Shown one piece after another: positions 1-38,490 of a stretch of 38,490 bases of DNA; the stretch's first letter is position 1, and each line of letters starts with the position of its first letter. A model generated the notes under the pieces. It searched no databases, was not told the DNA's origin, and worked only from the letters and a program-made list of their open reading frames with translations. Source of the stretch: Psammoneis japonica (taxonomy: Eukaryota); NCBI GenBank assembly GCA_008632985.1, contig QPGO01000137.1:186001-224490 (forward strand), read 5' to 3'. The position numbers were made by a program, and so were the translations under genes.

Positions 1-1
1 C

Positions 2-1357
2 AAATTGAGCAAGATCATCAATGTGCGCGTCAACGTCCAAGTTGTGCACAGTTTTCTCAATCAAACATTGCGCAACATCTGGAGCTGGCTTCAGACCCAT
101 TGCCAAATGGCAGCATCGGCACTTTCCAAAGGGTGTCACGATTGTCGTCAAATCCTTGGAGTCATCATCCAATTCGAATGCATGGCACATCATTGAGAGG
201 TCCAATTTGGTCAAAAACTTGCACCCGGCTCTCTTCTGAAGCACATCTTGAATGATCGGCAAAGGACAAACCTTGCGCTTGAGGGCTTTGTTGAGTTCCC
301 AAAAATTGCTGAGCCACCGCACTCGACCATCCTTCTTTGGCCGAATGAAAGTGCCAGCAGCCCATTCCGAAGTTCCGGCTTCTTCAAGAACGCCAAGAGC
401 CACCAAGTGATCCAGTTCTCGTTTGAAAGTTTCAACATCATTGTGCGGCACTGCATGCACTCGAGAATGACAAGGAACAGCGTTGGGATCAATGTCAAGG
501 TGAACTTTTTCGCCAGCATGCTTGCCGAGAGTGCCATCAAAAAGAGCAGTGTGTTTTTCCAATGCGAGGCGTAATTTTTCTTGTTGTTCGGCAGTGAGAT
601 GCTTCTGAGCCGACGCTGCTTCAGAAGGGGACGTCTCCTCACACTTTGCATCGAGGATGTGGCTGTCCCATGCATCATCATCGTCAGCTGGCTCATCAGT
701 CAAGTCGTCAAGCCACTGCTGGATGCCAATCCGATGGTTTCTTGGTTTCATTGCAATGCTTGAATCGAGCCACTTGACAGTTCCGTGTTCAAAATCTAAC
801 GTGATGCCTGCTCTCGCCAAGAAGTCCTGTCCAAGGATCACATTGCACTGGCAAGGTGAGTCAAACACATGCGCATGCATGCCATCAACACGTTTGGTCT
901 TGTCAAATTCAGGGAGCACCACATCCCGCAGTCAAACGTAATGAGCAGATTTGAATTCTCCCGCTGACGTCCGAAACTTCGCAACAATTGGTCCTGTGTC
1001 CTCCAATGCTGGTGCTGCTCCAACTGGCAACACCCGAGCATGAATCATTGAATGGGTTCCACCAGAGCTGAGTGACACCCGCATCACGTGCTTGCTTTCC
1101 TTATCTTGAATGAATCGCGCCGCGAACAAGGTTGCAGGGACCACGTTCAAAGGTTTGGTTGGTTTTGTTTTTGGGGTTGGCACAGCGCACTCAAGTCCCA
1201 CATCGTCTTCGTCATTCACAGTGTGATTTTCGAAATCGTCATCATCAAACAAATCAGCAGCATGCACATGACAATCATCAATGCAGTCAGCACAATCATC
1301 AAACACACAGGAATCAGGAGTGACACACTCGGACGACAGCTCTTCAAGCTCATTGGG
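2..1357 (-). pseudogene. pol: Gypsy pol remnant: protease plus reverse transcriptase
   Basis: Manual translation: protease-like VMRVSLSSGGTHSMIH (expected LLDSG). In the same frame after a TGA at 932-934 come RT motifs SEWAAGTFIRPKKDGRVRW..ELNKALKRKVCPLPIIQD..FLTKLDLSM..TTIVTPFGKCRCCHLAMGL..AHIDD (YxDD read as HIDD at 14-25). The RT part is missing from the ORF track because it runs off the window. Confidence 0.9.
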
Positions 1358-1363
1358 TCAGCA

Positions 1364-2593
1364 TCAACCGCGTCCCGAGAAGCGACCACCAGGTCGAAAA
1401 CTTCCCACTCCACCTCGATGCTCACGAGGCCCTCCCACAGAATCAAGATGATGGCTTTCAGCAGACCAATCATCAGGAGGAGCCATTCTGGCCAGATTGC
1501 CGTAACCGCCACCATCTGCATTGGTTTGGGTGTCGTTTTGATGTTGCATGCAGGAGCCACCATCTTCATGATGCTCGCCGCCATTGCCACCAGAGTTGCA
1601 GTTTCCTTGACCGCCACAATTTCCTTGGCCACCACCACGACCTTGACAGCCACGGCCTTGCCAACCATGACCTTGATTTCCACCATGACCATGACCTCCA
1701 CCGCGACCGCCACCTCGACCACCACGGCCACCACATCCACGACCGCCACGATCAGTTCTTGGACAGCAGTTGTTGGAGTCAGGATTCATGACGCAATCTT
1801 TCCACTTGTGATTGTGAGTGTGCAACGGACATTGGGTTTCTGGGTCAATGCGATTGCCTTTCTTCTTGTTCGAGCCGCCTTTAGACTGTCCATCTTTGCG
1901 CTTTTTCGACGTCTTCTTGTTCCCATCTGCAAACGATTTCTCCGTGCTCATGTGCGTGACTGTTTCCGCCAGTGTGTCATTTCCAATCGTGCGTCCTGCT
2001 CTTGTGTGCATCTCGCGCCACGACAGAGGGAAGCTGTCGAAAATCATCTTCTTCTTTTGGTTCTGAGCAATGACTGGATTATTTCCCGGCAACTTGTTTG
2101 TGTGTCGCACCAAAGTTTCCATTCGATCTGCATGTGCCTGTGCTTCAACGTCACACGGCTTTTTAAGAGCAAGCAAGTGTTCAATCATCGTGTCACGAGC
2201 TTCAGTTTCACAATGCGACAAATAAAAACGAGCCAACTCTTGGTCGAAACGAGCTGCCGTCTTCTGCGCATCCGGAATCGCCATGGTGAGATTGGACCAT
2301 TTGTCTTCAGCTGCATCCGTCAATGCTTCTTCAAAATTGTCAAACAATTCTTCTCCTGCAGTGAATTTGAGTTTTGCAGCCAGTTTACGAAAACGATCTT
2401 CCACAAACAACAACACTTCAATTCCATCACTTCCGTCAAAACAAGGGCACTTTTTCGTACGCGTGCCACCATCATCATACGATTGGGTCAATTTTACGAG
2501 TTCCAAATCCGAATGGGCAAATTTCGCAGCATGCAAAATGCACGGTTCCTTGGGGCTCTCGCGATCACTCATCAGGCCAAGTTGGTCCACCAA
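1364..2593 (-). pseudogene. gag: Gypsy Gag-like protein (409-aa ORF)
   Basis: Lies directly upstream of protease in the same frame. Contains a basic region, a knuckle-like CPLHTHNHKWKDC motif and an RGG/GGRG-rich tail. Confidence 0.8.
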
Positions 2594-2774
2594 GAAACTG
2601 TTTCAAGTGCTCTACCTTCGATTCGAGTTGTGCCACCCGAATCGCCAAATCCTGTTCGCGTTGTTTTCGTGTCTCCTTTTCTCGTTTTTGTTCCAAAGCC
2701 CAATTCGCTGCCTTTGCTCTCAAAGTTCTTTTCTCTTGTTTCGCAAGCCTGTTAGTTGTGTCATTGTTTCTCAT
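2565..2774 (-). CDS. Short charged coiled-coil ORF overlapping the gag start; possibly a frameshifted Gag N-terminus
   Basis: 69 aa, starts with ATG, K/R/E/Q-rich heptad-like sequence (REQDLAIRVAQLESKVEHLK), overlaps gag in another frame. Confidence 0.4.
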   Translation of the reverse strand: MRNNDTTNRLAKQEKRTLRAKAANWALEQKREKETRKQREQDLAIRVAQLESKVEHLKQFLGGPTWPDE

Positions 2775-3917: not shown

Positions 3918-5950
3918 ATGAGTGATGTCAGAAATTCATTCGTTGCTGAGCACGTGCAGCTGGTCTTTGGAGACAAGCATCCTCACAATCATTGGATGCC
4001 AATGGACCTCTGGGCAGAATGTTGCAATGCCAAATTTGGTTTTCCAATGAGGATCTCCATGCAATGGGCAGAGAGACAAAGAAAACACACAAAAACCAAT
4101 GTGGAGTGTCAAACATGACAACAACCAACAACATTGTTGCTGATGGCGTGAGTCTGTGCAAGACAGAATGCAGCTGTTAGATCAATGGCAAACAAGGCAA
4201 CTGCACATTCTTTCTTGCAACTGTTGGGGTTCCCAGCCAATTTCTTCATCCTCCAACAACTGGGAATGACGGTGTTAAAGCTTGGCTGTGAAGTGGGGCA
4301 GCCCGGAAGCAAATTGGGAGAGACTCAGTGTGATGAGCAGAAATGCTTGCAGAGTGTTTGGAGATGGATCCTGACATCCAGAACATGGAGAAGGCATGGT
4401 GAGCAAAGAAAAAGCAATGCATTTCAAATGAAGATGAAAATGACAACATGTCCATTGAAGAGTTGGAGTCCACCAGGCAAGACAATGCACCATGGCTTGA
4501 CCATTGGGGCTCCACTTGAGCCTGTTGCAGCATCTTTGCTCCACCCTCTGTTTGCCCATCTGATGTCAATGTAAAGGCGACCACACAAGATGGAATCAAC
4601 ATTCCATCAGCTGTTGTCAACCATGCCCAAGATGCAAGTCTGTGTTGCCTGATCAGGGTGACAATGATGCAACCACTGACTGTGAAAAGGTTGCCATGAG
4701 GCATTGTGTGCACCATGCATCATGGTGGTGCTTCAGACAGCACTTGACAATCTCAAAAGCAAAAGAAATGAGATTGAAGGCAACATGAGTTGGGGTGAGT
4801 GTTGTCGACATGCTGTCACTGGACCGAAAGAAGATGGCATCACTGCTGTGTCCAACTGGCAGACGGTGCAGTGGCAATGTCATTTGGCCAATGCTGGTGG
4901 TTGCTTTCCTCAGAACCACAACCAAGGCAAGCAACAGCTTCCACCCTTCTTCAGCAAGAATCCTGAGGTTAAAAATGCATTTGCTCAACATGCAATCAAA
5001 AACTTGAATTAACTGTTGGTCGAATTGATGCACGAGTGCCTCCACCAAAAATTCACACTGGCTCTCATGCCAAATGTGAAGAAAGATGTCATGGTGGTGG
5101 ATGATGAAGACTTTGAGCAAGCCATGGAGTCCATGGGTGAGTCTCCCGCACTTGGTGCAGAAGAGGAAGCTGCCGAGGAAGAAACCAAGGGTTTGTTTCT
5201 TAAACAGCATGAGCTCCGTTCACTTTCCATTTCCACAGCAGCCTGCTGGATGGGTCTCCTGGGATTTAGACACACAAACAGAATGAAAGGATTTCACGCA
5301 GATGGTCACAAGAAGCCCGCCACAAAGTTGCATCACAAGAAGTTCACAAAGAAGCAACTTGAGTCAGAGAAGAGGTGCTGCAGGTGGATTCAATTGCCCT
5401 TGGACAAGGTGACTGAGCTCATGAACTGATCATTGGTTCTGCATCAGGGTGAAAGCTCTGTGTTCACTTGTGACAGCAATGTGTTTGTCAAGTTTCATGT
5501 GGACAACTGCAGCAGTTTCCATGACATGATTGCACAATCAGACAACTTGAATGCCAAGCGGCATGGCAGCCATCTGAGTTTCTGCTTTCCCACTGGTGAA
5601 AAGCCCACTGTCATGTGGGGACAAGATGAGGCTGTCTGTGAACAATTGCTGTTGACAGAGAAGGTGCAGGTGGGACCCAATGGCAAGGAAGCTCTTGTCC
5701 CGAAAGATGAAGGTCCAGGTGTCATGCTGTCTCTGTTCATGTCTCGCGAGTTTGGTTTGTTGCATGATCTTGATGAGAAGCTGCGCAAGTGAGTCACTGA
5801 AAAGAGAAGTGGAGCCAAGTGCAGTGACGAGGAAGCAGCAAAAGAAGCCAGGAAATCAAGCACCAAGAAGGATTTGGAGAAGAACCCATTCCTGGTGAAA
5901 TTTGAGTGTGGCTCCAATGATGAAGGCCACTGGAGCTACAATCTTTTTGT
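3918..5950 (+). pseudogene. Decayed DDE-type (IS630/Tc1-like) transposase of the YxDGHE family, 3'-truncated
   Basis: Same-frame ORF pieces 4704-5012, 5016-5429, 5433-5792 and on to ~5950 give LSISTAACWMGLLGFRH..KGFHADGHKKP (WxxxLGF.Y..KGxYxDGHE), KPTVMWGQDE (first catalytic D), LVPKDEGPGVMLSLFMSREFG and PFLVKFECGSNDEGHWSY. Similarity stops before the second catalytic D. Start approximate. Confidence 0.7.
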
Positions 5951-6186
5951 GAGAACGGAGACCCACATGCCCACACCACCCAGTGCATTCAGTCACAGGG
6001 CCCCCAACCTGCAAGGGGCTGCAAATGATTCTGTGTGAACACCTTCAACATTCTCAATGGCAAAGCTGATGATTCAGTGAGAATGCAAGCTCAAGCTGAG
6101 CAGGCCATTTCTGGTGTCAAGCCAAGAAGGCCATTTCTGCCATCAAAACTTTCAATCAATGGGGGTCAATGGCCGATCACATTGTG

Positions 6187-6392
6187 GTGCAAATGTTGCT
6201 GCAGTGACACAAGTCACAGTGTGGCCCATGCTTTTCTCACGTTAATTGCAGTGCCCCAAAACTTGTCCCACCATGGTTTCTCATGTCAAATGAAACAGTG
6301 CAAAGCACAGCACAAGACACCAACAAACAATGCCACGTGCAACAGTTTTCTCAGAGAATGTTGCTCATTGCTCAAGCTGATGTGGCCAGGAC
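6187..6392 (+). repeat. ~210-bp dispersed repeat, copy 1 (inverted relative to 8193-8410)
   Basis: ctgcagtgacacaagt..gtggcccatgcttttctcacgt..gccccaaaa..tttctcatgtcaaa..caagacaccaacaaacaa..gctgatgtggc matches the reverse complement of 8193-8410. Confidence 0.85.
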
Positions 6393-7060: not shown

Positions 7061-7537
7061 TCCTGTGGGGAAGGTGAAGAGGGCAAAGGTGGCAGTGCAG
7101 CGGGCTGACGGGAGCTGTCTGATTTTGCAATGACTTTTGCCGAAGTCAAAATGCATGTGGAGCAAGTGATGCTGAATGTTGTCTGCTCATTTTCTTTCAA
7201 TCAGTGTTGAACTTTGAAGTGGCATCACCGTGCTCTTCATCTGCCATGCACAAGAAGCACTTGGTGCTCATGCCAAAGCTTGTGCCCTTGTCTGTGCCTC
7301 AAAACTGATGCTGTGCTCAGTGTGGACATTGTTTGCAGAAATGACACTTGTGGGGCAGGTGATGCAGTGTCATGTCCATTGGGCTCATTGCATCAAAACC
7401 CACAGGCACAGGGTGTGTGCCAGCTCATGTTCCCTTTGTTGTTGATGTCGCTGTTTTTCATTTCTTTTGTGGGCATCTTCATGCGTGCATCAGGTGAGGC
7501 AAATCCTTGCTGTGCTGCAGAAAAAGGGCCTTTTCTT

Positions 7538-11130: not shown

Positions 11131-13722
11131 GAAAGAGTGACAAATGATCACATCAGAAAATCCAGTCTTTTGGTGAAGAAAAGCGATTTCAATCAATGCC
11201 AACAGAAATGTTGTTTGTGCCTGCATTTTGCATTGCCAAATTGTGCCATTTTGAATTGTTTGGAAATGATGTCATTTGTGTTTCTGCACAAATCTTTTGT
11301 GAGCATGACACAGGAAATTGTTCAGCATGTTGCCAGTGCAATTTTGTGTGCTGTTTTTCTTTCACAATTGAACATGATGCAAGTTGCACAATGTCAAATG
11401 AGTTGGATTTGTGTTGTGATTTGCAGATCATTTTCAGCTGCAATCTGTTTTGATCAAAAGCGATTGTTTGCTTCTTGGTTGGTGAATTTTGACATTGACA
11501 ATTTGTCATGACAGCCCATTTCCATCAGTGATTCGTTCTCATTTGGAAATGTTCTCATGATCAAAAGTTTGTTCTGTTTTTGCCTGATCAACCTGACCAG
11601 AATGGTTTTGTGTGACAAAGCGCCAGAGTCGCTTGTTTGACAAGTTGTGAACTCTGAGTTGCAATCCATGCTGGGATTTGATCCTCTGTGTCAATCTTGT
11701 CAGAGCAGAGCATGTTGTTGCTGTGACAACCTTGCCTCTCTGAAAGACAGAGACAAAACATTGTTGAAATCGACAATGAAAATGGGTTGGTCTCAACCAA
11801 AATTGAGTGAGAAAAAAGAAATTGCAAATCACTGTAAATGCAAGGGACATCTTTTGAATCAATGTCCCATGATTCAAAATTTGTTGTTGTTGTCTGGAAG
11901 TTGTGGTTTTGTTGAACATGGCATTCCTTGTTTTGACACTTGCACAGAATGTCAAAAAGGAGTTAACAACGCCAACAACACACCAAAGTTTGCCATCACA
12001 AATTTACAGATTGGCAAAGCACCAGAAGTTTTGGCTTGTTTGTGGATGAAGTGGAGCCATCTTTTGTTTCTCAAGGTGTCATTGATCGTCATGCATTTCA
12101 GTGTTGTGGCGGACAGCACAAGTCTGTAAAGTTGTGGCATCAAATGCATGCCAACAATGCAGAACATGGAATGGCATCATTTGAGAGGTGTGATGAGCAC
12201 TGCATGCCTGAGGATGTAACATGTGCGCTGAGTGGTCCTTTCACAAAAGAACAAAAAGACATTGCCGTTTGCAACATGACCATCAATTGGGGAAAGATTG
12301 TTCGTGCACTAAAATGGTCAACCAAAAACAACCGATTGTGCTGTGGAATGAGGTCACCTGACAAGATTGAAATTCCACAACCTGGGGTTTTAGATCATTC
12401 TGCAACAATGGATGGATTGTCATCTAAGATGGAAGCTGTGTTTGAAGCCACCATCACATTTCCACAGCCAGATGAAACAGATCAAAATCACACAGGACAT
12501 GAAAACAGAGAGAACAGCACATGAAAGAGGTTTTAAATGACAAGAGATTTTTTCACATGATTTCACAATCAACTTCTGCCCCTGTAAAAAGTTTAGATGG
12601 CAACAACTTGCTTGGGTGCTTTCCTTTGCAATTTCCATTTGGCAATGGAGCTGGGTCTGATGAGGCAGATGGGGCTCAGTGTGTGAAACATTTGGCCAAC
12701 TCAAGCAAACCCAGTTTTCAAAAAGCAGAATTTTTGCTGCCACTGTCAGTGCATCAATCTAGATTGCAATCAGCGAGAGGTGCGTTGATTGGAGCTGACT
12801 GCAAAATGAGTGAAGACAGAACCACGACAAATGTCATGAACGACATTGATCTTTCAAAGTGGACACTGCCTTGGGAGAAATTCACAATCAAACTAAATCC
12901 ATGCTTGGTCGGACCAGAGCAAAAACAAAGATGCAGGAAGATTGCTAGATTGCATTTCTGCGATGTCAAAAAAACTTCCATTTTCTGATGATGCTGCCAA
13001 AGAAGAAAGAAAGAAACTTTTTTCTCTTTGCATTGAGCTCAATCTTCCTGCCACATTTTTGAGCATGTGTCCAGATGACACCTCCAATTGGCACATGAAA
13101 GTTCAATTGACAAATTCTTCTAAAGCACCCAGCTGCAAATCTACAGAAGCAACAGATGACCACTTGGCAGATTGTGCAAAAATGCGCGTCAAATGCCCTG
13201 GTTTGTCAACCTTAAATTTTGAAAACATCATTGACATGGTGCCATCGGATGTCATTGGTTGGGACATTAAAAACAATTGCAGCAAACAGGAAGGAGGAAA
13301 TTTTGGCAAAACAGAAGCATGGTTTGCCCCAGTCAAGGAACAACGAAATGACACATTGCACACACATTTTCTCATTTGGATCAAGGGTGGTCGGTTGCTG
13401 CTTTTTTAGCTCAAATTCGGCTGAACTTTTCCTGAATTTCACTGTGCTTCACCATGGCAAAAACAACAAGCCACAAGTCTGTGACGGAGGTGGCCCATCT
13501 GCCAACTCTCATTTGTTTTGTGTTTGTTGTGTGTCAAAGATTGCACATGCATGAAAAGTTGGCAGACAGCAAACTGCGTCATTGAGAAATGTTGATGATT
13601 GTCATCATCGTCGTGCTTCAATCGCGGTGTTGATGGCTCTTGTTTTCGTGTGCGATCGGGTGTGACTGCGAACAATTCTTGTTTTTAAAAACAAACACTG
13701 CAAAAAACCTTGTTCAAATGCA

Positions 13723-14870
13723 ATGGCAATTTCAGGACAAACCCGGGGATGACCCCCCCCCCAAACTTCAAGGCCCTGACCTGCACACAATGCTTGGTTG
13801 ACACACACCTGACTGCAAGGTGCCTCTCCGGGTCCCTCCCCTTGAGGCAAAACACTCAACTGGCCAGACCATGAGAGTGCAGCCGGTCCATCAAGAAGCT
13901 GCAGGTGGAGGAGGCCCTTGAAAATGGGGCAACTCCAACCGCAGCCATTTACGTCAATGGCGCATGCTGCCAAAAGTTCCAAAAGAAGCGCCTCCCCAAT
14001 CCAAAGTTGTCTGGAATCTGTGAGGAGACAAACAGACTCTGCTGCGGAAAGGTGGAGGATGTCTCGTCTTGTGACCATGGTCCGCCCAAATGTGTGTTGG
14101 CCAAAGACAGCAAGGAGGGCCACATGGAAGCCAAGAACTGCCTCCTCCGCCAGCTCGTCAATGACCCAGACATGGCCAAGAAATTGAGTTCATTCAACAA
14201 CCTCAAAGCTCAAAGGCAAAAGGAGCAGCTCAACAAAATCCTCAACAGCCATTTGATGGGTCAATGCTGCATCACTGCCAGCAAGTTCCTCCAGGATTGG
14301 GGCTTGAAAGCCTTTGCAGAGTTGGGTGTTGCTGCCGTGGCTGTGTGTCAACAGCTCGGCATTGAAGATGTCAACACCGATGACACAACCGACTTGAACA
14401 AAGTCACGCTGATGAATGCCGATCTGCAAGAAGAACTGGCTCAGCTCACATGCGAAGTCATTTGACATGAAGCCAAGTTCAAAGAAACCAACGCCAGTGT
14501 GGAGGCCATGAGGGAAGAGTTGGCAATCATTGGCTGTCAGCATCAAGACTTTATCCAAGCCCAGCAAGCTGCCAACGCAGCCATCAGCAAGTTGAGCGAC
14601 CGGGTTGACAATGTCAAGGAGGCACTCAATCAAGTCAACAGCATCGTTGCTCATGGTTTGGAGCAGCAGAAGTTCAATGACATTCCATCAGGAAAGAGTT
14701 TTGTTGCCTTGCTGTCTTTGGATGATGCTGGCGCCACCGCCCTCAACGTCACCACGGATGTGGCCAAGAGCACCAGCTCTTGCGATCATGATGAAAGTCT
14801 TGTTGGTGAGGCTGTGTCCACTGATCTGGATGCCACGAAGGTGAGACAGTTTCGTGAATGCAATGGCTGA
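13723..14870 (+). pseudogene. Unknown coiled-coil protein remnant within an insertion that splits the Helitron Rep domain
   Basis: ORFs 13905-14465 and 14499-14870 share a frame, separated by one TGA. Heptad-like segment (LQEELAQL..VEAMREELAII..ISKLSDRVDNVKEALNQV). Visibly more GC-rich than the flanking Helitron DNA. Confidence 0.55.
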
Positions 14871-17800
14871 CAATCTTCATTCTGCTGACAAAAAAAGCAT
14901 GATGAAGCCATTGATTCAACGACTTCTTTTGCAAATCAAATTCCATCATCTGAGTGTTTCAACAGCAAACCTTTTCCCAATGACAGACAAAAAACAATTG
15001 CAGATGTGATCGAGCACCACCACAAAAAGAATGGTTGTTGCAGCCCACACTTTGAACAATGTTCTCCACAAAAATTGTGAAATGTGAGGTGCAAATTTTG
15101 TCCAAAAAATCACCTTCACAAATCAATCACAACATGCAAAACTTGTGAACAAGACTGTGCCACAGATGATCTTGTGAAAGAGTGCTGTGAAGACCTTTCT
15201 AAAAAATTCACATTGAACTGCATTGTGAGAGATCTGATTTGCATCAGCTAAAACATTTGATGTCAAACTGCAGCTGTGAAGAAATGCATCATCAAATGGC
15301 AAATTTTGTTTCTTCAGTGACACAAAATCTTCATCAACATGCTTTCACTTGTTTCAAAAAAGGAGAAGAAGGCAGATGTTTTCTTCCAAAAGAACAATGT
15401 AAGAGGACAGCATGTTGTGACTGTGAAGATGAAAAGATTCCTTGGTTTTTAGTTGGGATGGCAAAAAAATGAATGGAGTGTCATGCACGATGGAAACAGA
15501 ACGACATCCGATGGATGCACATGTCAATCAACACAATCCATTGATCTCAACACTGTTCAATTGCAGCGCCAATGCTCAATGTGGTGTGGGTGGGTCGCAC
15601 ATTGTGCGTTGCACCTGTTGTGCAACCAAATCAAACAAAAAGAAGAAAAACAGGCCACGGTGGATGCACGTCAATGGTCACTTGGATTGTTAAAAAAAGA
15701 AATGAGAGATCAAAACAACAGTGTTGGAAACCAGGCTCTGTTGTGGCTTCTGCTGAAAACTGCACTGTTGGAGGACCCTTGGCAAAATTTCCAATCAAGC
15801 ACAATTCCAGGTTTTCATGTTTCCAGTCATTCGCACCTGTGCCTTTTGGAGACTTTTGTGAAGAAAGAAGCGCTCTCACCAATTTGCACATGCTTCAAAA
15901 AAACAAAGCTTTTCTCAGCAGCAGCAGAGATGCTTGTTTTCATCAACCATCTGAGCCAAATTCTCTGAGTCCCTGTGAATTTTGCGCCAAATGCAAAGTT
16001 GTGAACAAACCTTGAAAAAAGGAAAACTAAATGGATCTGCTGTCTTTTCGTTCTGATGCACCACCTTCTTGTAAAAATCTTTGGGTTTCTCTAAGAGATG
16101 TGGAGGTTGTTCCATTGGCGTGCCATGGCTTGATGAAACATGATGGCAAAAACTCTGGTGGTGACATGTTTGTAGATGAAAACATCAACGACGGCAATCG
16201 TGCATCCATCGAAGACCATTGTCAAAAAATCATGTTTCTCTTCTGGAATTTTTGTCCAGAAGACACACACGAAATCGACAGTTCGCATCATCTGAAATTG
16301 AAGTCTCCAATTGAAAATGATGAGCTTGACAAAGGATGTGATGTTGAATTGCAAAATGTGCAAAATTGCAAAAACAGTTTGAATGCTTGCAGAATGCCTG
16401 AACAACTTGACAGAAAAACGATTGAACCGATTGACACCAAAGATGATTGAAGCAAGAAACCCAAAGCAACGCCAAAGGAAATGACAGATCACATTGATGA
16501 AAAATTGTCAAACATTGCAATTGACACGAACAACACATTGTTGTCGGTCGAAAACAACACAAGTGATTCGAAGGCAGACAATGCAAACAATGACGTGATG
16601 AGACAAAGAGCATCTGGCAGAGCTGGTGTGGGGAATGTAACTCCTCCATCTGTTGTTGAAGATTCAGATCCATTTTCAGAGTGCTTGGTTGCAAACAAAC
16701 AAAATGAAGAAGAGCAACCATCCAAACAACAAAAAACCAAAGACACAAGAGCATTTCCAGCATTGACCATGGACCGATTGTTGACAGCAAAAGCCAAGAG
16801 CATTCGCAGAAATGTTCAACACACAAATGACAAAGAAATGTTTGTGAAAAAGGTGGAAGCAACTGGATCACCTGCTTCAACAACCGCGTGGGCAAATGAT
16901 GCTTTTTGTGACAAGAAAATGAAACAAGCAGGCAAAAAGCAAAAAGGAGCTTTCCAATGTGCAGTTGCCAAATTTGTGCTTCAACATGTTCCAGCTCAAT
17001 GTGCAGAAGTGCATCATGCATCAAAAGCAAGAAGCACGCCAGTGAAATGGAAATCTGAATTGTGCGAGCTGAGAGGTTTGCACCCTGACAGAAAAAATTG
17101 AAGATGAGAATGTTTTTAACTGGCTCTGGTGGTTCTGGGAAAAGCCATGTTGTGAACAACATCATCGCACATGCTTCGAGATTTTGTGATTTAATCAAGC
17201 AAAAATTTGACAAGAGAACCACAGTTGCAACAGCTTTGGCTGGGGTTGCAGCAACCAGCATGCTTGGAGAACAACACACAGTGGTTTGTGAATTGATCCA
17301 AGAACTGGAAAATCAAGTGCAAAGTTAGAAAGTTCAGATGCCTCCAACACAACAAAAGAATGGAGAGAAGTTAAAATGTCAACAATCGATGAGATGTCAT
17401 TTGCAAATGTCAAAATGATTCAATCCATCAACAGTGCTTTACATGTGCTAAAACAAGACTTGAGTCGTGCTTGTGGTGGATTGCCAATGATGTCAAGTGG
17501 AGATTTTTTTCAGTTGGATCCTGTTGGCAATGACAACAACTTGATTTGTGTGGACAACACTTTAGATTTGTGGTTTGCAGAGATCAATTGCTTCATTGAG
17601 CTTGACGGGGGGCACAGATTTGACAACAAAATTTGTCAGAGTCTTCTAGAAAGGTTGCAATGTGGTGAAATGACAGACACAGACACAAAACTCACAAACT
17701 CTAGAATGGTTGGAAATGAAAACATTGAGTTTGCAAACATGCCCAACAACTTGCAAATTGCATGTCACACGAACAAAGACAGGAACACAAACAACAGCAA

Positions 17801-18514
17801 TGTCTTTTTAAGTCATTTAAAAAATGTGCGCTCACAGGAAAAGGAAAACACCACACCAAAACACACGCTGGTTGTAAAATCAAGTGGTGATCACAAATGG
17901 TCGCACAATTCATCAACTCTTGCACAATCAGCCCCAAAAGATTTCTTTGACAAAGTTGCTGAATGTGGCTGCAAAACAGTTTCAGATGATCATTTTGTTG
18001 ACCCGCTGTTAAAGCTTTGCAAAGGCACTCCAATCATGTCAGTTAAAAATGAAGATGTGCCAAATGGCGCTGCAAATGGAGCATTGTGCAAGTTGCACAA
18101 AATGGCAATTTGTCCAGGAGTGGAGGAACACATGACTCCCATGCTCCTGGATGGATTTTGGGTCAACTCCACAGAGGCCCATCACATGGAAAAACTGGTT
18201 TTAAAGCACGGGCCCAATTTCTTGGAAGAACATGAGATTTGTGGGGGGAGTCATGACTGCAAAGCACATTTTCCCATGAACTTTCTTCCTGAACATGCAA
18301 AGGAAACAAGACATGTGGCTCGAATGTCATTTCATCAATTTTGTGGCATTGTCAACAACTGCACAACCACTCACAAACTTCAAGGACAAACAAGAGACAA
18401 CCTCTGTGTCACAGCTTGGAATGAATCGAAAAGTTGGGCTTGTGTTGCTCTTTTGAGAGTCAAGACCTTAAATGGTCTTTTTGTCAAAAAACCCATTGAC
18501 AGAACCTTTGACAT

Positions 18515-20894: not shown

Positions 20895-22130
20895 ATGCAC
20901 ACAGCAATGAGAGCCAAGTCTGAGCCTGCCCAACTGCAGAGGGTCTCCAACAAAAGGCCCCATTTTCTGGTGTGGTGTCAGAAACCATTGGCTTCATTTC
21001 TGGTGCTGTCAGCTCTCAGCTCTCCAGTTCTCAACATTTTCATGGCAACGTCTTGGTGGCCATCAAAATGCCATGGCTGCTGCTTTGGCAACAACAACAG
21101 CAGTCGTCAACATTGCAGAATCTCCACCTCGTGTATTTGCTTGTCAGAATGAACACAACGGAAACAATCAATTCCAAAATGCACTTCAAGACGTTCTGCC
21201 CAAGCACTCGATGGAAAGTTTGCAAAACGTGGGATGAGGCAGATTTCAAGGCAAAGAGCTTGAAGATTTGCAAGGAAAGCATGTCACACGTGAGTGTGAC
21301 CTTTTCCAACTGGCAGATGGTGGCTTTTGTGCAGCCATTGTAGAGCACTGGACAAGACATCATTTTCATGGAAAATTGGTTTTGTTTGGTGGAGAAGACC
21401 TCGACGTGAAGGATGATTTGCACGTGCCTCTTCTGCGGGATGATTTTGTCCATTGCCTTGGGCCAGTGCCGTCAGACACATTTCATCCCAATGCTTTGAG
21501 GATTTTCCATCTGCAGTTTGTTTGGTGGTTTGAACTGTGCAAAAAGGGACATGACAAATTGCTGGACCATGGAGAAAAGCCAAAAAGCACAAAGAAGCAC
21601 TTTTTGATTTACAGCCAATCCAACTGCACTCCATTCTGGGGGCAGCATGCGACGAGATTTCAAAGCTTGGGCGGGTGCATCATGGTGTGCGGGTGAAGTT
21701 GCAAGTGAAAACAAGACAAAAATCGACAAAGGCATCATGCTGGCAAACTGGGCAGACAACATTCAATCCCACCGTGAGTGCAGGTTTTGTCTTGTCATGG
21801 AACACAGTGCCCATGATGGCTGCATGATGGAAAAGATGTCAACGGCCTTTAAGGCGGGTTGTGTTCCCATTTGCTGTGACACCCGCGACACATTTCATCT
21901 GTTCAACAAGGACGCCTTTGTCTTTGGTGATGCACACAATGCAACACCGGCTCTGGAACATGCTCAAATGCTCAAATCCAATTGGATGGAATGTGAAGGA
22001 GTTGCCAATGTGCCAACACTGGCACATGGACAGGATGCAGTGGAAGAATGCTTTTCGTTTCATGAAGATGTGGGAGGAAAAAGGCTGAAATGGTGAGTGA
22101 GGAGTTTGCTTGGGATTGATGACAAGTTTG
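20895..22130 (+). pseudogene. Glycosyltransferase family 10 (alpha-1,3/4-fucosyltransferase-like) pseudogene
   Basis: ECRFCLVMEHSAHDGCMMEKMSTAFKAGCVPICCDT..LFNKDAFVF fits the GT10 motif YxFxLxxEN...GYxTEK...AxxxGxVPIYxG with Tyr read as Cys. Upstream KHFLIYSQSNC and an N-terminal hydrophobic anchor (LASFLVLSALSSPVLNIF). Several frameshifts. Confidence 0.85.
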
Positions 22131-30550: not shown

Positions 30551-31818
30551 GTGAAATGATCCAACTGACATGACATGGTGGTGATGGCAACACAAAAATC
30601 CGGTCTGTGACACAGCAGCAAGTTTCAATGGTGTTTTGAGCAAATGATCACAGCGACACTGAAAAAAAGCAGAGAGCACTTGCTGATGCAACACATGGTT
30701 AATTGTTGGGAGCAGCATTGTTGCGCTGCACTGCTCAATGTTGAGCATCGAACAAGGACAGAACAACAACAGAAAGCAAAGTGAGAAAATGGGGGGCAAT
30801 GGTTGCATGAGCAGCAGCGAGCACAATGCAAAACAACTGGAACACTTGTGGTCACATGAGTGTCATCATGAGAGGGACCAACATGAGCACATTAAGAGCA
30901 AAGCAACACATTGCAGCACAAGTGTTGCTCTCGGCGATGGGAAAGAAGAGCTCACTGTCACGCTGCTTTTTGTGAAATTCTGAGTGGCATTGTTGAGAAA
31001 ACAAGAATTCAAAAACAACGGTTGGAAAGGCATTGTGTCATCTGTGTGAACATTTGACATTTGCAATGCTCTTGTGCACATGGATGTCACAATGAAAAAG
31101 GCACCAGAAGTTCCATCAGACAGAAATGCACAGGATGAGAGAAGGTTGGGCAGGGTGCACCCAACTCACCGACATGGGGGACATCATGCAGGTGGGGACA
31201 GGAATTGTTTGGATGACCCATGGTGTGTTGCTGTTCTTCAGTCAGAGTGTTTGCTCTGCAGCACTGGAGCAGAGCGAGTGAGCGAGAGCTGCGGCGCTGA
31301 TCATCTGGGTGTCGTGCATGCATGTTGAGCACATTGCAAGACCAAGCATGCGAATGTTCTGTGTTTCTCTCCTCCTCCTCCTTTTCCTCTTCTTTTTTTT
31401 CATGAACTTGGAGCTGCCTGGCGCATGACCGGACACATCCCCAGCACGTGCTTCCCAGTTGAAGAAAAGCAGAGCTGGGCTTTCACCTTCTTCTGAGTGT
31501 TGACAGCCCCGGTCATTTGACACTCCCATCACCTGTCTGCAATCAATTGTCTTTGAATGAATGGGCCTGCAGGTCACAACTCATTGAACAATCAAAAGCT
31601 GTCATTGTTGCAGCTCACCAAAGACCGCCAATGAATTGCACAGAAAATCGCTGAAAATGCTCCCAGTTGAAGAAAAATGCACCAAGGTCATGCAAACAAT
31701 TGTGCACAATTTCTACCTGCATCTGCAACACCGTAGAACATTCAGTGCATGCACATGTCATGCGCAACCATTCACGCGTTTTTTGATGTCCGCGTCCCTC
31801 CTGCGCGCGTTTTTTTTC

Positions 31819-32369
31819 TGAACAAATGCTGATGTGCTGTCACGCACATAGGCAGTTTATGTGCCATTGGCGATTGGTCCACTGTCGCTTAATCAGTGGC
31901 CCCGGTGGCGCAACATCTCACAATTCTAGAACCTGTTGATGCTGTTCAACACTCTGTCTTGTCTTGCACCCAATTCTCAGCCATCATGGCAGCATTTGTT
32001 CACTTTGTCAGAGCCAATGCGCCACGATGTTCATCGCCTGGAACGGGCATCGCGAACGGCACGACGGTGTCGTTGCGATCGATCGATTTTTGCGGCAAGC
32101 GCCATGTTGGTCCCATGGTTGCTCGCGTGATCGCTGAGTCCTTCATGTGTGTCAACATTCATGGACATGAACGACATGCTCTTGGAGACCAGAGCTGTGA
32201 TCCGTTGGACATGACATTGGAGCATGGAATGTTTGATCATGTGGATGGAATGTGTTGGCTAAGACATGTGAACATTCGTGATTTAGATGACACAATGATT
32301 CATGTGTTGAGGTCTGTCATTTGATCACACAGATTTCATTAAAATCAAAACAGGTCATCTAATTGTTCA
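31819..32369 (+). repeat. 5' LTR (~551 bp)
   Basis: Start fixed by alignment to the 3' LTR. End inferred from inverted termini TGAACAA...TTGTTCA. Confidence 0.8.
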
Positions 32370-32550
32370 GACACCGCACATGTGGGTGCATGTCTGTTGG
32401 ATGTCATTGCTCAGGGGTGACACCGCCTGCTTGCGGGTTCGCTAAGTAGAAACCGCCAAATCGGCACGAGAACCACACATTTTTCTCACTTTCCTCCACT
32501 CACACAAGTGGATGCTCACGCGTTGAAACGCAAACAACTGCTGACACACC

Positions 32551-33972
32551 ATGGCTGCTGCCGCAGCCTTTGCCACCTGTCTCACGCATTGTGGATGCAA
32601 TGCACAGATGCGCACCCACATGGCCCGTCAAGGCTTCACTGCAGTCGAGGACCTGGAACAGGTCCCTTTGACTGAAATTGCCGACATGACAAAGGGCATT
32701 GTGAAGAGTGTGGATGCCGCCGCTGACCCTCAAGTCCGCTTTCCCCACCTGGCAAATCGCAAGCTCAAGGCACTGTGTGCATGGATTGACTGCCGCAGAG
32801 CTCGGAATCAAGAGCCGACCGCTGCTCTCTTCACTGGCGACGTCATTGGGACATGGACGGCACGTCTGACGGAACTGGAGCAATTCAAGTCCGCCGACTT
32901 GGATGACGAATCGGCTGCCAAAACCACCGTGGAACTCAAGAACCCACATGACTGGCCCACCTTCCAGGAGCTGTTGGAGACTCAACTGCGTCATCACTGC
33001 AGTGCCGTCACCGGAGTGCCCCTTGTCCACCCAGTTGGGGAACATGAAGGTGTCACCGCCAAGATGTTGGCTGCCACCTGCACTGCCATTGATGAGGACC
33101 TCACTGCCACTGCCCATCTTGCAGGAGCTCAGCACACGCAGGATGGGCAACGCCTGCATGACCTCTTGAAGAAGTCAGTGACAGGGGGGCCTGGATGGGC
33201 TTTTGTCAAACCTTCCAACCGCAGCCGCGATGGTCGCACTGCCTTCTTTGCACTTGAGAGGCAGGCGGAAGGATTGGCTGCCGCCACCACCCAAAAGAAC
33301 CGTGCTCATGCACAGATTGCCACCATGAAGTGCACCGGACGGGGTCGATTTACATTTGACCAGCACACTCAGCGTCATCAAAAGGCTCACAACGACTTGT
33401 CTGAGCTCAACGAACCTGCAGCCGAGACCAAGAAGGTCTCTGACTTTCTGAAGGGCATCTCCGACCCTGGGTTGGAAACTGGCAAGAGTGCAGTGGATGG
33501 AGACCCAACCAAGCTAGCGGACTTTGAGGCATGCCAGCAGCACATGAAAACTCTGGTCGAGAATGCCAAGAACCGCAATGCTGACACTCGCGGGGTTGCA
33601 TCCATCCAACACTGCAACAATGGGCGCACTGACCCTGGTGGGAAGCACCAACCTAAAAAGGACAAGCCCAGAATCCGGGCAGGCCATTGTCCTGTCGAAG
33701 AGTGGAGTGCTCTTGACGGCCCCGAACGAGAGCAAGTCCAAAAGCTCCGTGATGCCAAGAAGGCCGAGAAGAAACGCAAAGCTGCTGCTGCGTCCTCGGA
33801 GGCTGAGTCGGTCGATGCCAAAACTCGTGCCGCAAAGAAAGTGGCTGTCGCCGAGCCCACTTCTCAACCCACTGACACACTGAAAGACTCCAAAGAGCCT
33901 GGTGAACCTGCTGCCAATGCAGGCACCCAGCTCGGATGCAGCGTGCATGAGAAACCTCAGAAGGAGGAATGA
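32551..33972 (+). CDS. gag: Copia Gag-like protein; ORF open but heavily substituted (473 aa, no Tyr)
   Basis: ATG-initiated ORF after the LTR. Motifs TGVPLVH, GPGWAFVK..RDGRTAFFAL, RFTFDQH..HQKAH, KVSDFLKGI, GHCPVEEWSAL resemble CoDi Gag. Confidence 0.85.
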   Translation: MAAAAAFATCLTHCGCNAQMRTHMARQGFTAVEDLEQVPLTEIADMTKGIVKSVDAAADPQVRFPHLANRKLKALCAWIDCRRARNQEPTAALFTGDVIGTWTARLTELEQFKSADLDDESAAKTTVELKNPHDWPTFQELLETQLRHHCSAVTGVPLVHPVGEHEGVTAKMLAATCTAIDEDLTATAHLAGAQHTQDGQRLHDLLKKSVTGGPGWAFVKPSNRSRDGRTAFFALERQAEGLAAATTQKNRAHAQIATMKCTGRGRFTFDQHTQRHQKAHNDLSELNEPAAETKKVSDFLKGISDPGLETGKSAVDGDPTKLADFEACQQHMKTLVENAKNRNADTRGVASIQHCNNGRTDPGGKHQPKKDKPRIRAGHCPVEEWSALDGPEREQVQKLRDAKKAEKKRKAAAASSEAESVDAKTRAAKKVAVAEPTSQPTDTLKDSKEPGEPAANAGTQLGCSVHEKPQKEE

Positions 33973-36900
33973 ACAGTTGCGCCAGCACCAAAAGGCACAG
34001 AACCGATTGTCGCTGCACCTGCTGGCACTGTTTGTTTGTCTGGGCGATTCTCAAATGACACACATGTCTCTTTGTCATCTGCTGGAAATTCAGATAACGA
34101 GGCCACCACTGATTTGGACTCGCACGCTGACACGTGTGCTGTTGGGTCCAATTTTGTGATGTGCTCTGACATCGACAGAACTGTCGTGGTTCACCCCTGC
34201 TCCAAAGAGTGTGCACCAATGGAAAACATTCCTGTTTGCATGGCTGCTGCCGTGTGGGTTGATCCAACTGATGGACAACCACACCTGCTGTCAGTCCACG
34301 AGGCCATGTTTTTCGGGGACAAGATGAAGAACACCCTCCTGTGCCCCAACCAACTGTGAGCGAATGGGCTGATTGTCCACGACACCCCTCGCCAGTTTGA
34401 TCCAAGTGGCGCACACTCTGTTTCTTTCCCTGACTCGAACATCAGGATGCCATCGCGAATGCGAGGTGTTGCTTCAGTCTTTGATTCACACAAGCCAACA
34501 AAGGAGGATCTGGAGAACCTCCCCCGGCTGGAACTCACATCACCCCTGAGATGGGAGCCTTCCACTGATGCCCTGGTGCAAAAGGAGGAAGCTTGTGTGT
34601 GTGCCAGTGTGCGCCAAGGATCAGCGAAGTCGGACGGACGGTCGACGATGATGAACGCGACCAGGTGTGTTGCTTCCATTCATTCACACCAAATGTCCTG
34701 TCACGATGACAATGTCATCATGGACACCAATGACGATGATTCATTGTGTCACCGCCTGGTTGCTCAGGCAAATGTCTCCCACAACGACACTGAGGGAGAC
34801 GGGCTCCACGACCGGTGTGACTTGGATGTCCACCCGGATTGTGCCAAGCAGAAACGGGTGCATGCACTTTCGACCTCGAATCGTGCATCGACTGTCACGC
34901 CCGAGATGCTCTCTAAAAGGTGGAACATTGGCCTGACGGCCACTGAGAACACCCTTAGAGTGACGACCCAGGCAGGGGTCCGCAATGTCTGCACACCATC
35001 CGAACGGAAAGTCTGGAAGAAAGCCCCTTGGCTTAAGTTCCCTGCGATCAAGGGACGGTTCTACTCCAATCAGATGTTTTCGAAGGTTAAATCAACACAT
35101 GGCGAGATGGGAGGAAGAGCATTTGCCAACGGAAGAGGGTGTGATGGGTTCTGTCCTTGGAAGAGGAAACAGGACCACCCAGACGCCGTCATGTCATTCA
35201 TGCATGCATGACGTTGGTGCACCGCAGGTCCTTGTGTCGGATGGCGCGCCGGAAATGGCAGAAGGCCAGACCAAGGAGATCTGCAAGGAATGCAGGGGTG
35301 CACCAGGAGGTGTCCACCCCTCACAGCCCCTGGCAGAACCCAGCCGAGGCATCCATTCGTGAGTTGAAGAAAAGGGTCCGTGTGACTCTACGCCGGACTG
35401 GCGCTCACAGGCGACTGTGGTCCTGCAGCGCCAAATGGATGTGTCGCATGATTGCGACCAGCATGTCAGACATGGGAGGACGAGTCCCAGAAGAGGAGGT
35501 GACGGGTTCGACACCCGACATCTCTTCCCTCTCTCTCTTTGATTGGTGTCAACCTGTTCATCACTGCATGCCTGTGGCGGAGTTTCCACAAGAAAAGAAG
35601 TGCATTGGTCGTTGGCTCGGAGCAGCTGACAACTGCACTGACGATGTGGCATTCATCATTTTGCCCGAATCAGGCAAACCCATCATTCGGAAGGATGCAT
35701 GGGCCACACCGGAGGATGACCTTAAAACTCCAGCAATCCAGACGGATCTTGCATCGGTCGATCAAGCTTTGATCGAACGGCTTAGCATCCCGGAAAAGGA
35801 TGCCAGTGCTGACTTCCCTGAACTCCCTGACGACTTCATGGATGAATGGGACGACGCCGTTGAACCCGTGGAACCTGACGCTTCCAAACCGGAGGCTGAT
35901 GAGTGCACCCCGGAAGGGACAGATGAATGTCTCACAGCTCAAGTCATGTCACCACATGGAGGCGAGCTGACTCATGCTAGGGTCATTGCACACAAGCGAG
36001 ACAGCGACGGGGTCCCCATTGGTGCCAGGAATGATGACCCTGTCCTAGACTCGAGAACATGCGACGTGGAATTCCCTGACAAGATCCACTGATTCCTGTG
36101 CTGCTAACGCAACTGCAGAGAACCCATTCGCTCAGATCAACTCTGAAGGGAATGCCCACCAGATCATGAAGGAGATGGTCGATCACCGACGTGATGCCCG
36201 TGCTGTGACGGCCGATGACGGGCATGTGACGACCAAGACTGGCAGGCGTGCTCCCAGGAGGACGACAGTGGGCTGGGACCTGCAAGTCGAATGGAAGGAT
36301 GGGACTGCATCCTGGGTTCCTCTCAAGGATTTGAAGGAATCCAACCCAGTCGAGGTTGCTGAGCACGCTGCAGCGAACAAAGCAGCTAGTGAGCCAGCCT
36401 TTAACTGGTGGGTCCGAGACGTCTTGCGTCGCAGGTCAAGGATCCTGAAGAAAGTCAAGTCGCGTCACTGGAAACGCACGCACAAGTTCGGAATTGAACT
36501 CCCAAAATCTGTTGAGGAAGCTGTGGAGACAGATGACAGAACGGGGACCGATTTCTGGTTCAAAGCCATCGAGAAGGAAATGCGCAACATCATGCCTGCA
36601 TTCGAATTCCGCGATGACGATGCCGCACCGGTCGGGTGCAAACACATTGACTGTCACATGATCTTTGACATCAAGAGCACTCTCCAACGCAAAGCGAGGT
36701 TCGTGGCCGGAGGCCATCAAACCGATCCACCTGAGGAATCGACATGTTCCAGCGTGGTTTCGCGTGATGGTGTTAGGATGGCATTCACTGTGGCAGCTCT
36801 GAATGACCTGGAGGTCCTGAGTGCTGACGTTCAGAATGCCCACTTGAGTGCACACACTAAGGAGAAGTGTTGCACTGCTGCTGGCCTGGAATTTGGGAAG

Positions 36901-38183
36901 CAGAACGAAGGAAGGCCGGTGGTCATTGTCCGTGCCTTGCATGGTCTCAAATCTTCAGGTGCAAGATTTAGGGAGCACATGGCAGCTGCTCTGCGGGACG
37001 CTGGGTTTGAGTCTTGCAAGGCTGACCCGGATGTCTGGATGCGGGCTGCGGTTAAGCCGGATGGCTTCAAGTGCTGGGAATGTGCACTTGTCTACGTGGA
37101 CGACTTGTTGTGCATCTCCCATGAACCTCAGAAGGTCATGGATTGTATGAGCTCCAGGTGCACGCTCAAGGACAGAAGCGTCTGTGAGCCGGAAGAGCAC
37201 TTGGGCGCCCAGATTAGAAAGTGCCAGCTGTCTGACTCGGACGGCAAGACACGCTGGGCCATGTCCTCTGACCTTCATGTCAAAAGGGCATCAGCTGACG
37301 TTGAATTAGAGCTTAAGAAAACTGACAGACGTCTTCCAATGAAGGCGTCAACGCCCTTGAGCTCGGGACACAGGCCTGAACTGGACGGTTCACCTGAGTT
37401 GAACGCCAAAACGGCTAACTGCCATCAAGGCCTTGTTGGTGTGCTGCGGTGGGTGGTTGAACTGGGGTGAGTGGACATTTTTGTCGCTGTCTTGCTCATG
37501 TCCTCCTACTCAGCGGCACCACGAGTTGGACACCTGGACGAGGTGCTCCATGTCTTTGCATGCTTGAAAGCTCATTCTAAGTCTGCGCCAGTGTTCGACG
37601 ACACTGAGCCTGTCTTTGACGAGAGTTGCTTTGCCAAGTGTGATTGGGAAGAATGTTGCCCTGGCGCGGCTGAACCAATGCCGCCGAACATGCCGGAGGC
37701 ACGCGGGAATGGCGTGACTGCTGCTTGCTTTGTTGCTTTGTCGATGCTGATCACGCCGGATGCCGTGTGACATGCAGGTCCCACACTGGGATCCTGATCT
37801 TTGTCCAACGAGTGCCCATCTTGTGTCACTCTAAGCGGCAGAATGCCGCAGAGTCCTCCACTTTTGGGTCGGAGTTCGTGGCTGTGAAGACTGCAGTGGA
37901 GCAAATTGAAGCCTTGCGTTGCAAGCTTCGGATGCTCGGAATCCCCATGGATGGGGCCACGACGTTTCTGCGACAATGAGCTGTCTTCAAGAACTCAACT
38001 AAACCAGAGTCTACTTTGAAGAAGAAGCATAATGCAATTGCCTGTCACAGGACTCGTGAGGCACAAGCCGCTGGAATGGCGCGCATTGCTTGAGAAGACA
38101 GACGCACGAATCTAGCGGACGTGCCAACTGAGTTGTTGCCTGGACCGAAGCTCTGGGAAATCACAAGTCACATCCCATGGTGA
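33973..38183 (+). pseudogene. pol: Copia pol (protease, integrase, RT, RNase H) with stops and frameshifts
   Basis: PR DLDSHADTCAVG; IN LSKRWNIG, VGAPQVLVSDGA, PHSPWQNPAEASIRELK; RT CHMIFDIK..RKARFVAGGH, ADVQNAHL, RALHGLKSSG, DPDVWMR, LVYVDDLL; RH FVDADHAG..RSHTG, ESSTFGSEFVA, FCDN, LKKKHN, NLAD. In-frame TGAs at 34357 and 37468; frameshifts near 35205, 35295, 36085, 37730 and 37980. Confidence 0.95.
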
Positions 38184-38314
38184 GTCCCAAAAGGGGACAA
38201 ACCGAACGGGTTTGCCATGCAGGTGCGGCTTTTCCCACCCCCAAAATTTGATTGCTGCCCTGGACATCAGGTTGCATTTGTCTGTCGATCTGGCCCGAGC
38301 GGAGCTGGTGTCAG

Positions 38315-38325
38315 TTTGAGGGGAC
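38315..38325 (+). other. Polypurine tract
   Basis: tttgaggggac lies immediately before the 3' LTR start TG at 38326. Confidence 0.75.
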
Positions 38326-38490
38326 TGAACAAATGCTGACATGCTGTCATGAACACAGGCAGTTTATGTGCTGTTGGCGATTGGTCCACTGTCGCTTGAT
38401 TGGTGGCCCCGGCAGCGTGACATCTCACAATTCTAGAACCTGTTGATGCTGTTCAACACTCTGTCTTGTCTTGCACCCAATTCTCAGCTG
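38326..38490 (+). repeat. 3' LTR (partial)
   Basis: 165 bp aligns without gaps to 31819-31983 with 16 mismatches. Confidence 0.95.

Follow-up and report, generated by a model that had tools for sequence, protein, structure and literature searches.

A Psammoneis japonica transposon island nearly devoid of TpA, consistent with A:T to G:C hypermutation at TpA after integration

The TpA-depleted window and its elements

We here describe a stretch of 38,490 nt from Psammoneis japonica (contig QPGO01000137.1, positions 186,001–224,490, forward strand; the whole of this stretch is hereafter called the window), which is a silenced transposon island made up of a Gypsy fragment, a Helitron, a high-copy Copia element, a glycosyltransferase pseudogene and older debris that is no longer recognisable, and from which the dinucleotide 5'-TpA-3' (TA) is nearly absent. 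An earlier note on this DNA had described TA as extremely rare and TG and CA as abundant throughout, and this description held. TA was found 183 times in the window, corresponding to 0.48% of the dinucleotides (183/38,489), and the observed/expected ratios were 0.069 for TA, 1.762 for TG, 1.677 for CA and 0.413 for CG, at a G+C content of 47.4%. In all twenty 2-kb bins the TA ratio was between 0.02 and 0.18, stretches without a recognisable gene included, and neither TATA nor ATAT occurred at all. TG and CA were enriched to the bound set for them in most, albeit not all, of these bins.

As an outside baseline we used 79 metagenome loci with related Copia elements, having a median TA ratio of 0.70 (range 0.47–0.93) and a median CG ratio of 0.91. 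Strong TA depletion was sought among these loci, the lowest value being 0.47 and none coming near that of the window. The two loci with the lowest values (L016 and L049) had ratios of 0.47–0.48 for TA, about 1.5 for TG, 1.42–1.47 for CA and 0.35–0.38 for CG, a profile that could be the result either of CpG decay alone or of a mild version, in another organism, of the TpA process proposed below.

The coding potential of the window was assessed in its 98 stop-to-stop frames of at least 120 amino acids (aa), in which Tyr made up 0.17% of all residues. Counted on both strands there were 189 TAA, 101 TAG and 1,983 TGA triplets, and because TAA and TAG are scarce, with TGA as the sole common stop, many long overlapping frames are found on both strands. 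Every peptide string quoted in the earlier note could be located in the translations, and its statement that the Gag and helicase frames are free of Tyr proved correct (no Tyr in 475 and 428 aa, respectively). A frame of 559 aa at 1076–2752 (+) is overlapped by one of 412 aa on the opposite strand (1367–2602), neither of which had any family match, and in the frame at 1324–1788 (+) His makes up 20% of the residues (31/155).

A Pfam search over the 98 frames gave five relevant families, three of which fell under the cut-off (Table 1). Of the family labels given earlier, those of the Helitron and the Copia element were supported by significant matches, with the Gypsy reverse transcriptase, the helicase and the GT10 fragment having weak matches, whereas no family search confirmed the 'transposase' that had been proposed around the string FHADGH. 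The Gypsy-like fragment contains no Tyr in 310 aa, and its catalytic box reads HIDD at the place of YxDD, which we take to be the catalytic box of active reverse transcriptases. The Helitron pseudogene was delineated with P0128, a 1,853-aa Helitron protein from an ENA metagenome with a Tyr content of 3.2%, which aligned by tblastn in eight segments at 42–68% identity with frame changes between them. The gap of about 1.5 kb in this alignment, situated between P0128 residues 591 and 606, resembles an insertion in the Helitron. The GT10 fragment was compared with human FUT9 (8d0o_A, E 0.0016) and was found to carry Cys at two of the FUT9 Tyr positions (FCL versus FYL and DGCMMEK versus KDYITEK, query versus FUT9); a viral source for this fragment was considered and rejected, as no relative of it was found in viral contigs.

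For the Copia element, the Gag search gave seven relatives, of which the best had 36% identity over 93% and none an organism name, and the nearest Atlas cluster, commonest in Bacillariophyta, serves as a lead only. The Copia reverse transcriptase had 1,384 relatives, the best being a metagenome protein at 64% identity. Among the 120 matches listed, the named relatives were four proteins of Fragilaria crotonensis (best 59%), one of Fistulifera solaris and two that carried bacterial metagenome-bin labels, and no Tyr-poor relative was present, all having at least 2.7% Tyr. Integrase and protease were not recovered by Pfam over the 98 frames, and none of the tRNA and Rfam families searched for was present in the window.

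Table 1. Positions, strands and supporting evidence of the features recognised in the window
Feature	Position	Strand	Evidence and remarks
TpA-depleted, TpG/CpA-enriched, CpG-poor domain	1..38490	.	Dinucleotide counts; continues beyond both window ends
Gypsy-like reverse transcriptase fragment	2..931	-	RVT_1 E 0.014, weak, below Pfam cut-off; cut by window start
HIDD	14-25	-	Peptide string located
FGKCRC	113-130	-	Peptide string located
FHADGH	5292-5309	+	Peptide string located
Helitron Rep/helicase pseudogene	11602..18512	+	tblastn with P0128; frame-shifted, interrupted at 13382-14889
Helitron_like_N match	12897-13406		Pfam E 2.3e-9
PIF1 match (helicase frame)	17292-18575	+	Pfam E 9e-4, weak, below cut-off
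ACVAL	18438-18452	+	Peptide string located
GT10 (fucosyltransferase)-like fragment	21608..22093	+	Glyco_transf_10 E 2.4e-4, below cut-off; no transposon gene itself
GCMMEK	21818-21835	+	Peptide string located
PICC	21866-21877	+	Peptide string located
Start of Copia 5' long terminal repeat	31818..31981	+	91.5% identical over 164 bases to 38325-38488
Copia Gag-like frame, 475 aa, 0 Tyr	32545..33969	+	7 relatives
Copia reverse transcriptase frame, 473 aa, 1 Tyr	36049..37467	+	RVT_2 E 2.2e-10
RALHGLK, QNAHL, ESTCSS, VAEHA, SRHWKR (Copia)	within 36355-36951	+	Peptide strings located
Start of Copia 3' long terminal repeat	38325..38488	+	Pair alignment of the repeats; purine tract just before, cut by window end

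Direction, site preference and timing of the changes

The direction of change was derived from comparisons with relatives that have kept their Tyr residues. In an alignment of the Copia reverse transcriptase with 60 homologs, having on average 3.9% Tyr, there were 17 columns with conserved Tyr (Tyr in at least 70%), and at these the window reads His eight times, Cys seven times, Phe once and Tyr once. Other conserved residues were retained in 80–100% of their columns, with Ile as the exception (5 of 11), and conserved Arg was retained in 15 of 15. That all of the conserved Arg remained while 16 of the 17 Tyr were lost shows that CpG decay is not the cause of the Tyr loss. In the Helitron, none of the 64 Tyr residues aligned with P0128 was retained, 31 having become Cys and 14 His, and elsewhere Ile was replaced by Val (26), Met (20) or Thr (17), and Val (18) or Thr (20) by Ala; the commonest of these other replacements were those predicted from a change of TA to TG or CA within or across codons. 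The specificity for a preceding T was evident also at sites where the relative has Ile, Met, Thr, Asn or Lys, all encoded by codons starting with A, since the first codon base in the window was G at 66 of 74 such sites following a T, versus 34 of 360 following another base. The Helitron, the GT10 fragment and DNA that could not be assigned were affected as strongly as the retroelements.

The tetranucleotide contexts of the remaining TA differed strongly (R, purine; Y, pyrimidine), with 4 TA left versus 1,994 TG plus CA in RTAY, and 111 TA left versus 1,928 TG plus CA in YTAR. At YTAY sites the gain over the 79-locus baseline was +16.1 per 1,000 tetranucleotides for YTGY and +4.3 for YCAY. An additive half-site model, in which the base that follows the A on its 3' side determines the rate on each strand, was fitted to ten context classes and gave cumulative hits of 3.09 for T, 1.91 for C, 0.76 for G and 0.26 for A at that position, and where an A has survived after T it is mostly in T|AAR. 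It is likely, from these results, that the order of preference is 5'-TAT > TAC > TAG > TAA, a 3'-neighbour rule that is new here.

At Tyr codons following a purine, Cys and His were found 16 times each, and following a pyrimidine 22 and 7 times, respectively. The 16:16 outcome shows that there is no bias with regard to the transcribed strand. Such a bias was also considered as the source of the excess of TG over CA in the Copia element, and was rejected both on this ratio and since unmutated Copia relatives already have TG at 1.29 versus CA at 1.03 on the sense strand; that skew is ancestral.

The two long terminal repeats (LTRs) of an element are copied from one template and are thus identical at integration. 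Those of the Copia element showed nine difference events in 164 bases, comprising five adjacent CA/TG doubles, two cases of TA versus CA or TG, one CpG transition and one A/C difference, so that seven of the nine were of TA type and a single one was neither of TA type nor at CpG. Since the LTRs differ at TA-type sites, the changes must have arisen in the chromosome once the element had inserted, and separately in each LTR; these differences, together with the equal damage to the GT10 fragment, to the Helitron and to DNA that could not be assigned, exclude editing of an RNA intermediate. With most TA sites converted and a single event of another kind, the TA mutation rate would very roughly exceed background by two to three orders of magnitude, as estimated from this very small LTR sample. 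Much of this had been claimed in the earlier note, namely a change of TAY to CAY or TGY (seen at 15 of the 17 Copia columns and 45 of the 64 Helitron sites), an A:T to G:C direction aimed at TpA (agreeing with the Tyr columns and the first-base comparison), strand symmetry (agreeing with the 16:16 ratio at Tyr codons with the preferred context on both strands), an action upon repeat DNA (agreeing with the CA-versus-TG pairs between the LTRs) and the inability of either 5-methylcytosine (5mC) deamination or fungal repeat-induced point mutation (RIP) to turn TAY into CAY or TGY, the observed direction being opposite to that of RIP.

CpG decay contributes separately to the TG/CA excess, as a second source. 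Judged from the observed/expected ratios of the window, CG is short by about half as much as TA and the CG share of the TG/CA gain about a third, and against the 79-locus baseline about 56% of the gain was derived from TA and about 44% from CG. CpG depletion with a gain of TpG and CpA is thus present, but it is unable to account for the TA loss. The young Copia part had ratios of 0.09–0.18 for TA and 0.68–0.73 for CG, and the older parts 0.02–0.07 for TA and 0.12–0.43 for CG; that the young part retains more of both indicates a process that has acted for long and is far faster than CpG decay.

Other repeats in the window were also compared. Two old dispersed pairs, 7565–8016 with 9303–9755 and 6189–6393 with 8192–8404, are 79–80% identical, and their differences are mostly Y[A/G] and [T/C]R changes, that is, an alternation between CA, TG and CG. 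Over all seven repeat pairs compared, such changes made up 117 of 226 mismatches. A perfect tandem duplication with a 44-base unit (10027–10112, 2.0 copies, 100% match) lies amid old decayed DNA.

A proposed mechanism and its alternatives

The explanation that we favor, with a probability of about 0.85, is a transition process that acts on DNA after integration, changes A:T to G:C at 5'-TpA-3' and has proceeded to near saturation. Each palindromic TA can be hit once, on either strand, to give TG or CA, and since this first hit removes the 5' T of the A on the other strand, thereby destroying the motif on both strands, CG is not produced. The preferred site would read 5'-T-A-Y-3' on the strand whose A is changed, with T > C > G > A at +1, which is equivalent to 5'-R-T-A-3' on the strand whose T is changed; when context is taken into account, both strands are hit equally. 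Nearly all Tyr codons have been lost, TAY being itself the preferred site, together with ATA codons and TAA and TAG stops, TATA and ATAT have disappeared, and missense change is heavy without a matching rise in other substitutions. As the agent we would propose a TadA/ADAT-like adenine deaminase of nucleic acids that works on DNA, converting A to inosine that is read as G. This deaminase may be drawn to silent, methylated chromatin and not to repeats as such, and the process may serve genome defence, with ordinary 5mC deamination at CpG running in parallel and adding to TG and CA.

Several points weigh against this explanation or its parts. The contrast between Tyr codons after purine and after pyrimidine had a Fisher p of 0.063, and the Copia element taken alone had two Cys and four His after pyrimidine, opposite to the rule. 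At Helitron Ile sites before a purine there were ten ATG and eight ACA, where the rule predicts ACA to dominate. The +1 preference rests partly on a baseline of other elements with unrelated composition, and the five CA/TG doubles between the LTRs could in principle have come from a CpG instead of a TpA ancestor. The evidence comprises one 38-kb window and the outside loci, and the deaminase is a candidate suggested by the signature. TA being palindromic, the signature is furthermore blind to whether A or T is attacked.

The assembly was compared with X1, a coded public sequencing run from 2019 that possibly belongs to the same project and therefore provides support, not proof. No RNA run was among those listed as containing the sequence. 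X1 contained 0.81 of the sampled 31-mers of the window, and its contigs covered 30 of 30 bins of 18491–38490 with the same TG/CA states. Word depth in X1 was about 50–136 over most of 18.5–31.8 kb, much of which is thus at single-copy depth, with 232–1,399 at 23.2–25.2 kb and 292–769 at 27.2–28.5 kb. Over the Copia element (31818–38490) the summed word depth was 4,213–8,918 versus about 50 in neighboring DNA, a difference of about 100-fold, which indicates that the family has roughly a hundred copies with at least 90% likeness. Window and X1 contigs differed at 448 places in 20 kb, 40 of which are listed, and in the 31 groups of differences inspected about half were CpG/TpG/CpA transitions and two involved TA. 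At position 32144, where the window has CA, TA is read in six X1 contigs (summed depth 5,098), and loose ends beside other copies contain TA. The single-copy parts of 18491–31800 differ from the X1 contigs by about 0.5–2.6%, and places under one X1 contig show only the alternative letter; it is possible that X1 represents a different strain or haplotype, or that long reads have erred at methylated CpG. A single contig of X1, at depth 63 and with 26 letters on its shorter side, bridges 31844 to 38357, skipping 6,512 bases; either the X1 sample has a solo-LTR allele or the path taken through the LTRs is ambiguous.

All counts given above would be explained equally by A to G in TAY and by T to C in RTA, and strand symmetry favors neither. 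The T of 5'-R-T-A-3' could therefore be the target, for example if it were oxidised to 5-hydroxymethyluracil or otherwise modified and then mispaired or underwent error-prone repair, but such a modification is hypothetical here and 5-hydroxymethyluracil is only weakly mutagenic, and we regard a T target as unlikely. A preprint on a similar process proposes an ADAT2-like candidate (10.64898/2026.01.13.699255). Should the TA loss instead reflect a compositional bias of the whole genome or an altered genetic code, the window would merely be typical, as might be suggested by the lack of any spared stretch within it. A working proteome can, however, not have 0.17% Tyr, conserved catalytic Tyr residues have been replaced, TA is present in X1 at 32144 and in the loose ends of other copies, and the younger Copia DNA has kept more TA than the older parts, which together make a genome-wide cause very improbable.

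That TA carries a modified base miscalled as G or C, so that the signature would be an artefact of sequencing or assembly, seems still less plausible. CpG/TpG-type errors are a known long-read error class over methylated DNA, and about half of the inspected differences between window and X1 were of that type; yet the X1 contigs, being short (432–1,396 bases among the listed pieces) and with a depth of about 50, have the same TG/CA states, and the LTRs give CA versus TG in identical context, which a context-driven miscall would not do. Similarly hard to uphold is an ADAR-like A-to-I editing of double-stranded RNA intermediates that is fixed by reverse transcription. TAG, a 3' context favored by ADARs, is a poor site here, the LTRs differ at TA-type sites despite having come from one template at integration, and the Helitron (a DNA element), the GT10 fragment and unassigned DNA are equally mutated. 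In its favor, two of the elements are retrotransposons, and ADARs are stated to prefer a 5' U (10.64898/2026.01.13.699255). Least probable of all, and contradicted as a sole cause, is that 5mC deamination (CG to TG or CA) produced the whole TG/CA excess. With CG at 0.41 overall and down to 0.12 it covers about a third to 44% of the gain, and about half of the inspected window-versus-X1 differences lie at CpG, but it cannot remove TA or make CAY or TGY from TAY, and its expected toll on Arg (15 of 15 retained) was absent where 16 of 17 Tyr were lost; it is retained as a parallel process.

Relation to known systems and significance

The earlier note had stated that no pathway of this kind was described, which no longer holds, as a 2026 bioRxiv preprint by Mettrop et al. 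reports TpA to TpG/CpA hypermutation of integrated DNA of nucleocytoplasmic large DNA viruses and virophages in Bigelowiella natans (10.64898/2026.01.13.699255). According to that preprint, 231 of 302 nuclear mutations in mutation-accumulation lines fell in giant-virus and virophage regions, 230 of these 231 being A to G or T to C with the GC-biased ones all on TpA, at a rate of about 6e-7 per site per generation, or about 1,000-fold over background (10.64898/2026.01.13.699255). It further reports that TpA has a frequency of 0.0018 on average in 324 genes and that there are 124 depleted clusters, in which reverse transcriptase and DDE domains are enriched, and proposes an ADAT2-like protein as the agent (10.64898/2026.01.13.699255). 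In the open-access literature and bioRxiv, including two diatom transposon papers, this preprint was the one report of TpA hypermutation that was found.

The signature in the window is the same as that reported for integrated viral DNA in the B. natans lines. Both have A to G or T to C changes at TpA and TpA loss coupled to a gain of CpA plus TpG, with a rate orders of magnitude over background in B. natans and, by the rough LTR estimate, probably also here, and defence against foreign DNA is proposed there. The targets measured in B. natans were two viral insertions, however, which still have 3.3% and 9.2% TpA, whereas those seen here are transposons and one pseudogene, in an island with TpA at 0.48%. 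Neither the preference at the +1 neighbour nor the evidence from the LTRs, both given here, is present in the main text of the preprint (10.64898/2026.01.13.699255). Since the nearest named relatives of the Copia reverse transcriptase are diatom proteins and no B. natans protein is found among the 120 matches listed, the host probably belongs to another lineage. That none of these matches is Tyr-poor, despite the roughly hundred copies of the family in X1, and that the lead from the Gag cluster is Bacillariophyta point the same way. The window thus probably represents a second lineage with TpA hypermutation, and is a saturated example on transposons. A wider proposition, to which we would give slightly less than even odds, is that TpA hypermutation, lately seen in a chlorarachniophyte, exists also in a diatom or other stramenopile, as a chromatin-coupled defence with 5'-TAY-3' specificity that removes Tyr codons and TATA strings from all classes of mobile DNA, forming an adenine-directed counterpart of RIP that is either ancient in the Stramenopiles–Alveolata–Rhizaria group or has spread among marine algae.

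RIP in ascomycete fungi changes C:G to T:A, mostly at CpA, and thereby creates TpA and stop codons and lowers G+C. The process in the window resembles RIP in giving strand-symmetric, dinucleotide-directed transitions at the DNA level that inactivate transposons and leave a strong dinucleotide bias. It differs in that A:T is changed to G:C at TpA, with TpA and the TAA and TAG stops destroyed and G+C raised; changes of RIP type creating TpA were not found, the direction being the opposite one. Neither is the duplication dependence of RIP evident here, with much of 18.5–31.8 kb being at single-copy depth in X1.

Deamination as a mutagenic defence would be shared with TadA/ADAT2-ADAT3, ADAR and APOBEC/AID. 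The natural site of TadA, U33-A34-C35, resembles TAY, whereas ADAR acts on RNA and favors a 3' G, and APOBEC/AID deaminate C; TadA/ADAT-like deaminases are recognised by their HxE/PCxxC motifs. 5mC deamination, finally, gives the same products, TG and CA, but starts from CG where the process in the window starts from TA, and is much slower here, as the young Copia element has lost about 85–90% of its TA with CG still at 0.68–0.73. LTR elements of the diatom Phaeodactylum are reported to be CpG-methylated (PMC2806351).

The findings also have consequences for annotation. With two of the three stop codons erased and TGA as the sole common stop, long antisense frames arise readily and would mislead gene callers, giving long false frames on both strands (98 in 38 kb), and transposon proteins are driven under the thresholds of family searches.

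Targeted A:T to G:C hypermutation of nuclear DNA was previously described in one preprint of 2026 and in one alga. The window shows the end state of such a process in LTR elements, in a Helitron and in a gene that was captured or has decayed, and what is added here is that it acts at the DNA level after integration, on both strands equally and at a rate that is likely set by the 3' neighbour (TAT > TAC > TAG > TAA). The timing relative to integration, the strand symmetry and the 3' rule narrow the search for the enzyme and supply oligonucleotide substrates for an assay, and were the host a diatom, candidates could be knocked out with existing genetic tools.

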